From Patescibacteria group bacterium (GTDB taxonomy: Bacteria > Patescibacteriota > Patescibacteriia > GWA2-46-9): a stretch of DNA of 52,514 nt. The notes under the pieces are model-generated. The model had not been told where the DNA came from, ran no database searches, and worked only from the letters and a program-made list of their open reading frames with translations. The stretch is taken from positions 134,568 through 187,081 of the forward strand of contig JBAYUF010000002.1 in NCBI GenBank assembly GCA_041675205.1, read 5' to 3'. Positions 2,420-45,667 of this stretch are shown one piece after another. Made by a program: the position numbers and the translations under genes. The stretch's first letter is position 1. Each line of letters begins with the position of its first letter.

Positions 2420-2433
2420 TTTTTGTTTCCATA

Positions 2434-2524
2434 GTTTCCGCCTCCGGCGGACAATAAAATACCCCGCACCTTTCTTTTGCCCTCGTAGTTTCCGCCAAAG
2501 GCGGATCCGCCCTTGGCGGACAAT
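2434..2524 (+). repeat. Two copies of a CCGCC/GGCGG palindromic (REP-like) element
   Basis: gtttccgcctccggcggacaat (~2434-2455) and gtttccgccaaaggcggatccgcccttggcggacaat (2488-2524); related copies at 25883-25916, 51541-51556 and 51636-51668. Confidence 0.8.
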
Positions 2525-2545
2525 GCACATTTGTAGCATACCCTT

Positions 2546-16826: not shown

Positions 16827-17019
16827 CCCTTCTTTTTTTAAATCTCACCGCTCGTTGTTCCTGGTGCAGCGACTCGTCGACGCCTTGCGCGTCGCGGTCG
16901 CTGCAGCGGGTGGAACGGATAGCAACTTGAAAATTTCATAGTCCAATGCAAGCACACGGATGAAGACGCATCTTCACATAGATTAATTGCAGTTTTACTG
17001 GATGCTGATGAATATCAGC

Positions 17020-20156
<3,137 letters not shown>

Positions 20157-20255
20157 GCTGATGTGCGTCCACATCCAGCATGACTGTAATTTTTTTGATG
20201 CGTCAGACAGACGCGTGCTTGCATTGTGTTTTCACTCCAGCCGTGGGCTGCAGTG

Positions 20256-20364
20256 TCCTGGTGCTTCTAGCGGTGAGGCCACACCTGTTCCCATTTCGAA
20301 CACAGCCGTTAAGCTCACCAGCGCCGATGATACTCTTTCAGGGGAAAGTAGGTCAGCGCCAGGA
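20256..20364 (+). rRNA. rrf: 5S rRNA (~109 nt)
   Basis: TCCTGGTG..CACCTGTTCCCATTTCGAACACAG..CGCCGATG..AGTAGGTCAGCGCCAGGA, flanked by an extended stem gtgggctgca/tgcagcccac. Confidence 0.95.
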
Positions 20365-25562: not shown

Positions 25563-25636
25563 ACATAATAAAATGAAAGCTAGCTTTAAACACCAAGGTG
25601 GCATTTGAAACGGGACGACCACATTGTATTGTTCAT

Positions 25637-25710
25637 TGGGCAATGTAGGATTCGAACCTACGACCTTCTCGGTGTAAACGAGACGCTCTAACCAACTGAG
25701 CTAATTGCCC
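25637..25710 (-). tRNA. tRNA-Val(TAC), CCA not encoded
   Basis: GGGCAAT/ATTGCCC acceptor, anticodon loop TTTACAC, GGTTCGAATCC. Confidence 0.96.
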
Positions 25711-25799
25711 ACAAAAAGATTTAATTTTGCTTCGTTACCTAAGTTTAGCAGACCTCATAATAATTGCGATTGCATCGCAATTACTGAAAATGACGGACG

Positions 25800-26021
25800 G
25801 TGTCCCGTGAAACGGGACGGCCTTCTCGGTGTAAACGAGACGCTCCCAACCCGCCACAATGTGAAACTTTGGGCGGGTAACCTCCGCCAGAGGCGGATCC
25901 GCCGTTGGCGGAAACTGCCTGTCCGCCATAGCTCCGACGATACTGCCGGAGCGAAGGAGGAAGTTCCGACGATGCTAGGCATGTCGGAACCCCGACCTGA
26001 AAGCGTCGGGGCTAATTGCCC
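25800..26021 (-). pseudogene. Partial tRNA-Val(TAC) duplicate with a stack of palindromic modules in place of the D-arm
   Basis: GGGCAATTAGC at 26021-26011; a 25-nt exact copy of the anticodon-arm region (25821-25845 = 25664-25688); no 3' acceptor strand. Confidence 0.8.
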
Positions 26022-26114
26022 ACAATAAGGTTTTAATCCGGCTCCCTACGAGGTTTCTGTATACTTGCTTTTCTTGCTCCTGTCCAGGTAGGGGACTTCT
26101 GGTATACTAAGGGA

Positions 26115-45484: not shown

Positions 45485-45667
45485 ACAGAGATAAGATCCT
45501 ACAACGAACAATGACACAGGTGAAGGGTTTGTGTTGCCCCATGCCCGCCACAATGTGAAACTTTGGGCGGGCTGCCATAGAAGAGATAAAGTAGGGCGAA
45601 GTATAGCAGTCGTGGCGGGCCTCTGACAACCGTAGCCGACGACCAACAAATCAGTTATCATGGCGCC

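Follow-up and report, generated by a model that had tools for sequence, protein, structure and literature searches.

Rickettsia palindromic elements (RPEs) and the miniature inverted-repeat transposable elements (MITEs) of Coxiella are in-frame insertions in protein-coding genes, and RPEs occur in RNA genes as well. Transfer RNA (tRNA) genes are classic integration sites, where partial tRNA repeats flank the integrated elements, as reportedly described by Williams (2002). Repetitive extragenic palindromic (REP) sequences and bacterial interspersed mosaic elements (BIMEs) comprise palindromes tagged with GTAG or CGTC (Di Nocera et al., 2013; PMC3733652). The locus described here lies in a 52,514-nt stretch of a Patescibacteria genome (the window; contig C2:134568-187081), in which the pieces of a tRNA-Val(UAC) gene, interrupted by palindromes and referred to below as the ghost, stand upstream of an intact tRNA-Val(UAC) gene. 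The ghost is likely a non-functional remnant of an earlier tRNA-Val(UAC) copy that was colonised by site-specific, REP-like palindromes. The bacterial genome that contains it (G000; 1.15 Mb, 36 contigs, 48% GC, 49 tRNA genes) belongs to a family, f1, of five genomes (G000-G004), which are the only ones in their order, and the comparison was extended to a set of 401 genomes of the class, including G285 from another family.

The case for site specificity is based on a composite element of about 115 nt, which is inserted between TAGCTCAGTT and GAGC at the same position of the D-loop throughout. The element was identified in ten dead tRNA copies, all of them adjoining an intact gene. They represent seven tRNA species from four genomes: Val-UAC, Ile-GAU, and Val-GAC in G000, Met and Val-UAC in both G001 and G004, and Val-CAC, Ile-UAU, and Asp in G285. 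The alignment of these copies (A1) consists of an invariant element core with D-arm flanks, and the junction motif GGCGGAGRTTACCCG was found in 4 of the 401 genomes of the class (G000, G001, G004, and G285) with zero control matches. The element in the ghost is 85% identical over 84 nt to that of the tRNA-Ile(GAU) ghost (C1:90582-90665), which is located upstream of its live gene and has the element after GGGCGTGTAGCTC, the first 13 nt of that tRNA. It is also 91% identical over about 74 nt to the element of the tRNA-Met ghost in G004, where TGGCAGGGTAGCT and GAGCAACG flank it. The three elements of G285 each have (G)TAGCTCAGTT on one side and GAGC on the other, within a dead 5' tRNA copy upstream of an intact gene. 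With ten insertions at one equivalent position across seven tRNA species, the element is site-specific, and the pattern does not reflect shared ancestry. G285, which is the sole genome outside family f1 with the D-loop element, also has two open reading frames (ORFs) with a Y1 domain (C12:44942-45160 and C6:68494-68787) that are unlinked to the element.

The length of tRNA sequence kept on the 3' side of the element varies from 0 nt (Ile) and 8-14 nt (Met, Asp, and Ile-UAU) to at least 27 nt (the Val-UAC ghost of G000) and everything (Val-GAC and the G004 Val ghost), and in G000 the element interrupts an almost complete but dead tRNA-Val(GAC), which is located downstream of its live counterpart. 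This range, from none of the 3' part to the whole gene, is read as progressive erosion of once-complete genes that had been interrupted by the element. The composite element is apparently undescribed, based on a limited literature search on its sequence, on palindromic and in-frame elements of the Candidate Phyla Radiation (CPR), and on tRNA-linked repeats.

The pieces of the Val-UAC ghost are in gene order from window positions 26021 to 25795, and the intact gene begins about 90 nt downstream, after a spacer of 84 nt (Table 1). A preliminary description, made by a model from the letters and a list of ORFs, had placed tRNA-Val pieces and palindromes on the minus strand upstream of the intact gene, and the sequence is as it claimed. 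Comparison with the intact gene also bears out its perfectly preserved anticodon arm, as GAGCGTCTCGTTTACACCGAGAAGG at 25845-25821 matches the intact gene at 25688-25664 in 25/25 positions (29 nt at 97%; repeat D1), and a self-copy search returned a 15-nt exact copy, TTGTGGGCAATTAGC, covering the 5' end of the ghost. On the other hand, the D-arm was said to have been replaced by five palindromic modules. The modules are all present and span positions 26011 to 25850, but TAGC, TTGG, and GAGC survive; because both halves of the D-stem (TAGC and GAGC) and TTGG remain, the hairpins are an insertion inside the D-loop and not a replacement of the D-arm. Nor are the modules five independent ones, since hairpins 3-5 and the double hairpin together make up one composite unit that other loci share. 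Hairpins 1 and 2 have no second copy anywhere in G000, and the second of the two is a local paralogue of hairpin 3 (repeat D4: 15 nt, 87%).

The 3' end of the ghost was described as lacking an acceptor strand, which is probably incorrect. After GAGCGTCTCGTTTACACCGAGAAGG, CCG, and the T-arm substitute GTCCCGTTTCACGGGAC, the sequence ACCGTCC stands exactly at the place of the acceptor strand. ACCGTCC is the 3' acceptor sequence of a second tRNA-Val allele (A-type), which is intact in G004 and in the metagenomic locus L032 and also ends the ghost of G001, and it would pair with the ghost's own 5' acceptor strand at 5/7 positions. Judging from this comparison, ACCGTCC is probably the surviving 3' acceptor strand, and the ghost is probably a chimera of a B-type 5' end, as in the intact gene, and a probable A-type 3' end. 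An alternative reading is that ACCGTCC consists of ACC and the GTCCGT head of a tail-array unit. The ghost failed as a functional tRNA, as both ARAGORN and the Rfam tRNA model detected the intact gene alone. An overlapping ORF of 107 aa (25705-26028, plus strand) has no Pfam match, and a coding role was rejected. The intact gene of G000 has no encoded CCA (..ATTGCCCAATG), while the 100% identical gene of G002 encodes CCA (..ATTGCCCACCA). Two features surround the intact gene: the palindrome in the spacer resembles AT-rich hairpins trailing other tRNA genes, and the downstream remnant consists of the 5' half of the T-arm-substitute hairpin followed by a degraded B-type acceptor strand and ACC.

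Table 1. Coordinates of the ghost, the intact tRNA-Val(UAC) gene, and adjoining features in the window
Feature	Position	Strand	Remarks
5' leader copy GGATTAAAACCTTATTGT (AATTAAATCTTTTTGT in intact gene)	26022..26039	-	about 13/17 matches; repeat D2, 23 nt, 91%
Ghost 5' acceptor strand and 5' D-stem half GGGCAATTAGC	26011..26021	-	same as intact gene, B-type allele
Hairpins 1 and 2 (CCCCGAC..GTCGGGG; TTCCGAC..GTCGGAA)	25964..26011	-	extra modules, at this locus alone
Composite D-loop element	25850..25963	-	linker CTTCCTCCTTC first, long hairpin last
Hairpin 3	25952-25931	-	inside composite element
GGCGGA..TCCGCC hairpin	25927-25907	-	inside composite element
30-nt double hairpin TCCGCCAACGGCGGATCCGCCTCTGGCGGA	25912-25883	-	inside composite element; followed by GGTTA
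Long CCCGCC..GGCGGG hairpin	25877-25850	-	3' end of composite element
D-loop remainder (TTGG), 3' D-stem half, full anticodon arm, and variable region	25821..25849	-	includes GAGCGTCTCGTTTACACCGAGAAGG
T-arm substitute GTCCCGTTTCACGGGAC, GTCCCG-TTTCA-CGGGAC hairpin	25802..25818	-	17 nt in place of 17-nt T arm
ACCGTCC, putative 3' acceptor strand	25795..25801	-	A-type allele (5' GGACGGT), from comparison with G004, L032, and G001
Perfect AT-rich palindrome TAATTGCGAT-GCA-ATCGCAATTA	25761..25783	-	inverted repeat I8, in spacer between ghost and live gene
Intact tRNA-Val(UAC)	25637..25710	-	Rfam tRNA 77.5 bits; sole gene with UAC anticodon in G000
Downstream remnant GGTCGTCCCGTTTCAAATGCCACC	25597..25620	-	repeat D3, 24 nt, 79%; 16 nt past intact gene

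Ghosts of this kind are frequent in the genome. Partial self-copies, defined as same-strand exact matches of at least 11 nt to part of a tRNA at a distance of 600 nt or less, were found near 22 of the 49 tRNA genes of G000. When the 49 tRNA queries were compared with random 1.2-kb places, an 11-nt exact match was obtained for only 0-2 of them, so the matches near tRNA genes are far beyond chance. The hairpins follow the same distribution: 13 of 15 TCCGCC-N3-GGCGGA hairpins are within 450 nt of a tRNA and 15 of 16 GTCCCG..CGGGAY sites are within 600 nt of one, with tRNA neighbourhoods covering about 4-5% of the genome. The second type includes the T-arm substitute of the ghost, which had correctly been assigned to the hairpins of the tRNA-tail arrays, and its replacement of a T arm at equal length recurs in the Val-CAC and Asp ghosts of G000 and in L032. 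The tail-array hairpins have the layout GTAG, stem-loop, and ACC, with members reading (A)GTAG-TCCCGC..GCGGGA-CACC, whereas the copy in the ghost reads GGCC-GTCCCG..CGGGAC-ACC and lacks the GTAG head.

Several other tRNA loci in G000 have similar layers. A tRNA-Val(CAC) look-alike (C10:27104-27175), which ARAGORN labels as a tRNA, has its own compensated acceptor stem (GGCGCG/CGCGCC) and GTCCCGTTTTACGGGAC in place of the T arm, and a second similar ghost follows the real gene. The tRNA-Arg(CCG) gene (window 2430-2545) is preceded by two 5' ghosts, one consisting of GCCCTCGTAGTT with the 30-mer described below and the other of CCATAGTT with a single hairpin. At tRNA-Met (window 45485-45575), the ghost comprises a leader, TGGCAG, and an exact copy of the 28-nt CCCGCC hairpin. 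In addition, a cassette of tRNA-Val(GAC) and two trailer hairpins is present twice in tandem at C4:21450-21860; in the second copy, where the gene is dead, the anticodon stem is different but fully compensated, the D-loop element is present, 38 nt are inserted in the T-loop, and separate trailer hairpins follow. Several tRNA genes of family f1 (L155, L156, L158, L022, and window 2455-2475) are preceded, at a distance of about 8-22 nt, by a leader motif, (A)CCCCGCACC(T)TT, which is copied along with ghost layers. This motif may be a promoter or processing signal.

The 30-nt double hairpin within the composite element (30-mer; TCCGCCnnnGGCGGATCCGCCnnnGGCGGA, window 25883-25912) has a much wider distribution. 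An exact-pattern scan with 24 specified bases and one genome per species gave more than 120 loci among the matches listed (L034-L153), and the hosts among these matches include many CPR lineages, Omnitrophota, Planctomycetes, Kiritimatiellae, Ignavibacteria, Chloroflexota, and others. The flanks and reading frames of 126 sites among the matches listed were examined. T is found at position -2 in 86%, T at -1 in 62%, and A at +2 in 78% of these sites, and 64 of the 126 are in frame 0 of ORFs of at least 200 aa, compared to 5-6 in each other frame. A chance or low-complexity origin was ruled out by the 24 specified bases, for which the chance expectation is far below one, the more than 120 listed exact loci, and the strong frame bias. 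The in-frame 30-mer encodes the peptide SAxGGSAxGG in either orientation, and its in-frame hosts include the ATP synthase beta subunit, a TsaD-like protein, and a class I aminoacyl-tRNA synthetase. Homologues from G000 that span the site have a gap in 21 of 25 cases, which is exactly 10 aa in 5 of them, as in TELILM|SARGGSASGG|K compared to TELILM|K; another filled site is VVDV.F|SAEGGSAFGG|..KLPA in the ATP synthase beta subunit. Judged by the 10-aa gaps, sites with a readable empty counterpart have gained exactly 30 bp, and the target was not duplicated. With its many listed loci and the gaps in homologous proteins, the 30-mer is a real dispersed insertion element, and it inserts after TT. 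It was not found in a limited literature search. Outside family f1, only 5 of the 126 listed sites are near a tRNA, and the flanks there are unrelated. Within family f1, the plain 30-mer is present in the D-loops of tRNA-Arg 5' ghosts as TAGTT|30-mer|CAA, with two stacked units in G003, and the three non-tRNA copies of the 30-mer in G000 are all intergenic.

Relatives of the tRNA-Val locus have ghosts in various states. In G004, an intact A-type tRNA-Val is followed by a spacer, the double hairpin with GGTTA and the long CCCGCCC hairpin, and then the 3' part of a ghost without any 5' part, consisting of GAGC and the anticodon arm (identical in all 25 nt), an ordinary T arm, and a B-type acceptor with CCA. 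In G001, an intact B-type gene is followed by hairpins including the long one, GAGCGTCTCGTTTATACCGAGAAGG with the anticodon TAT and not TAC, a GC hairpin where the T arm should be, ACCGTCCA, and a third relic. The ghost in G002 consists of GGATGGTTAGC, a 21-nt insert in the D-loop, and GAGCGTCTTGTTTACA, with the 3' strand of the anticodon stem gone, and an intact tRNA-Val identical to that of G000 begins 23 nt after it. A metagenome scan with the neighbouring EamA gene as query gave a single locus, L032, whose EamA neighbour is 61% identical and where an intact A-type gene is followed by a ghost with its anticodon and T arms overwritten by hairpins. Relatives with fewer modules thus exist, as the preliminary description had proposed to check, but the anticodon arm is not preserved as such among them. 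An assembly chimera at the ghost of G000 is made less likely by the four other genomes in which this architecture also occurs.

Taken together, the likely history of the ghost as a colonised, dead copy would start from a redundant tRNA-Val copy arising by duplication or by replacement with another allele. The palindromic element would then hit the single-stranded loop of the D-hairpin in the redundant copy, presumably by a mechanism directed at DNA hairpins, like that of the IS200/IS605 and REP families. Subsequently, the copy would lose its T arm or have it overwritten, gain further hairpins, and erode by deletion. The perfect anticodon arm would be due to a young age of the copy or to conversion by the live gene and not to selection, and the ghost itself would serve no function; its hairpins may at most ride in the leader of the tRNA-Val precursor. 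The suggestion in the preliminary description that a tRNA duplicate serves as a sink for tiny palindromic elements was essentially right, although too passive given that the composite element is specific to the D-loop. Ghosts with both flanks kept and ghosts located downstream of the live gene favour an element that hit a redundant copy, which then decayed.

Several observations weigh against this history. The Y1/RAYT (REP-associated tyrosine transposase) domain PF01797 is absent in all five genomes of family f1, while control genomes give matches, and no transposase or recombinase is linked to the D-loop element. Moreover, the third codon positions of the EamA gene are 35-38% identical between these genomes and therefore saturated, whereas the ghosts of G000 and G004 are identical in the anticodon arm (25/25) and nearly so in the segment of the 30-mer, GGTTA, and CCCGCCC (35/36). 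Near-identical ghost segments next to saturated sites mean that the ghosts cannot be old neutral orthologues; from this comparison, they would be young, or homogenised, or independently made by a site-specific process. Recent origin, gene conversion, or mobility of the element must then be invoked, each of which is only a postulate, and conversion from the neighbouring gene cannot explain the ghosts of G004 and G001 because the anticodon stem of the live neighbour differs there. A simple course of duplication and decay also does not predict the strict polarity of the fragments in G000, where 5' fragments, often with the leader, are always upstream and 3' fragments, often with the trailer, are always downstream, or the stacked layers seen at tRNA-Met in G001, tRNA-Arg in G003 (two units), and tRNA-Asp in G285 (two layers).

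The polarity and the layers would be accounted for by a cassette that inserts and restores. The element would enter a tRNA gene, at the D-loop on the 5' side and at the T-loop or 3' end on the other, and bring in or regenerate the displaced part together with its leader, so that the older part ends up further out as a ghost layer and the tRNA pieces act as homology or attachment arms. In addition to upstream fragments that are all 5' parts, downstream fragments that are all 3' parts, and layers in which the same junction is repeated, this explanation is consistent with both kinds of fragment at four tRNAs of G000, with the B-type 5' and 3' remnants on the two sides of the live Val-UAC gene, and with an element that is nearly identical between genera with saturated synonymous sites. 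The ghost alleles are also often unlike the live allele with compensated stems (e.g., Val-GAC), which suggests replacement by incoming copies. However, tRNA sequence is kept on both sides of the element in Val-UAC, Val-GAC, the G004 Met, and the G285 Ile ghosts, which places the element inside a once-complete gene and not at an attachment junction. The copy bearing the element is downstream of the live gene in three cases, and no polymorphism of empty and occupied sites was observed. Furthermore, there is no recombinase, nuclease, or transposase gene adjacent to the element and no integrase near the ghost, the only tyrosine recombinase of G000 being about 83 kb away. Such a cassette is therefore considered unlikely, while the strict polarity of the fragments, the copied leaders, and the stacking of layers speak for some coupling of insertion to gene regeneration.

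A functional tRNA-like RNA is less probable still. Transcribed alone or as the leader of tRNA-Val, the ghost would act as a decoy, regulator, or processing scaffold, for example, as bait for anticodon nucleases or modification enzymes or as a stabiliser of the precursor. It shares the strand of the live gene, which it directly precedes, and its predicted fold (-119 kcal/mol, with a 9-bp closing helix ATGGCGGAC/GTCCGTCAT) is far better than those of shuffled sequences (z = -6.6; 0/200 as good), but any stack of perfect palindromes is expected to be stable. The anticodon arm, which is intact, identical in the G004 ghost (25/25), and 24/25 in that of G001 despite saturated neutral divergence, would also suit an RNA that displays its anticodon, as the preliminary description had offered. 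This proposal finds no support in the relatives, as G001 has a different anticodon, G002 a truncated arm, and L032 an overwritten one. The order of ghost and live gene also varies, with the ghost upstream in some genomes and downstream in others, and sister ghosts with the same element, some keeping only 0-14 nt beyond it, lack the anticodon arm. The long hairpin has opposite orientations in G001 and G004, which is expected of a DNA palindrome and not of a conserved RNA helix, and hairpins 1 and 2 are unique to G000. Lastly, the ghost had no match in Rfam even at E ≤ 10, the scan upstream on its strand returned no promoter-like site, and the terminator scan returned one weak terminator-like hairpin overlapping its tail. 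An attachment-site (att) scar of a lost phage or island once integrated at tRNA-Val, which the standing of tRNA genes as integration sites flanked by partial repeats would suggest, is highly improbable because such scars duplicate the 3' part of the tRNA whereas the ghost has the leader and 5' part at nearly full length, the repeats enclose and adjoin neither an integrase nor cargo (EamA begins at a distance of 93 nt), and seven tRNA species have this arrangement with a single 115-nt element in common.

As for the origin of these palindromes, it is possible, although rather doubtful when all parts are taken jointly, that the 30-mer and the composite element represent an undescribed class of ultra-small mobile DNA without target duplication. 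Such elements would attack the loops of DNA hairpins and TT|NAA sites, would have spread over many bacterial phyla, and would survive in essential genes as a flexible SAxGGSAxGG linker in either orientation. One lineage of Patescibacteria would have specialised on tRNA D-loops, with hits coupled to tRNA duplication or replacement, and its tRNA loci would have become layered nests of dead copies, of which the ghost is one layer.

The ghost itself is a pseudogene, and the interest of the locus rests on the D-loop-specific element and the in-frame 30-mer found across phyla. The former marks the turnover of tRNA genes by duplication or replacement in bacteria with minimal genomes, and the latter could mark horizontal DNA traffic among groundwater bacteria. 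For the annotation of CPR genomes, ghosts are prone to be miscalled as odd tRNAs, as one Val-CAC ghost already has been by ARAGORN. The loop of the D-hairpin also provides a concrete target for studying the movement of REP-like elements without a transposase. Elsewhere, the window contains seven tRNAs and bacterial 23S and 5S rRNA genes (17019-20364) without an adjacent 16S rRNA gene. An organellar origin, which the density of tRNA genes could have suggested, was rejected given these bacterial rRNA genes and the placement of the window in a genome of 1.15 Mb and 36 contigs. The 23S match is 3141 nt long compared to the 2925-nt model, which suggests a probable insertion in the 23S rRNA gene.

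Among the known systems, REP sequences and BIMEs are similar in being GC-rich, perfect or near-perfect palindromes of 20-40 nt that occur singly, as dimers, or in clusters. The tail-array hairpins share with them the GTAG head, the stem-loop, and a short ACC/CCA-like tail (Di Nocera et al., 2013; PMC3733652). Some REPs are also intragenic, and those of the CGTC type likewise occur without a dedicated transposase. In contrast to REPs, however, the copies here number tens per genome and not hundreds, with about 15-16 sites per hairpin type, and they are not dispersed, as more than 85% of the hairpin sites are within 600 nt of tRNA genes. The hairpin of the ghost has GCCG or GTCG where GTAG would be expected, family f1 has no RAYT/Y1 transposase, and the 30-mer is nearly unchanged across phyla whereas REP families are species-specific.

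The 30-mer resembles RPEs in that it is inserted in frame in conserved housekeeping genes, adds a short tolerated peptide, and is absent from the homologues. It is set apart by its size (30 nt compared to about 100-150 nt), by encoding one peptide in both orientations, and by its presence across many phyla of uncultured bacteria, whereas RPE-type elements are found in one genus. The 30-mer would be the smallest element known to insert in frame into protein genes.

With the IS200/IS605 family, and with palindrome-associated transposable elements (PATEs), the present elements share insertion 3' of a short motif (TT) without target-site duplication. The D-loop element is also built of hairpins, and its targets correspond to the loops of DNA hairpins (the D-arm). 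By analogy, its insertion would resemble a single-stranded-DNA mechanism of the IS200/IS605 or REP type (HUH/Y1). On the other hand, the cognate TnpA (Y1) is lacking in family f1, and on that feature the element therefore falls outside both the IS200/IS605 and the REP families. The tRNA-linked repeats of Escherichia coli (tyrT/rtT) are similar in that partial tRNA copies lie beside a live gene and the units end in the 3' tip of the tRNA. The ghost ends in ..ACC and the downstream remnant in ..GCCACC, yet the ghost is located upstream of the gene and has 5' parts. The tyrT/rtT repeats, like att duplications, comprise the 3' end only, whereas the ghost has the leader and 5' end at nearly full length and is interrupted by a site-specific palindromic element.

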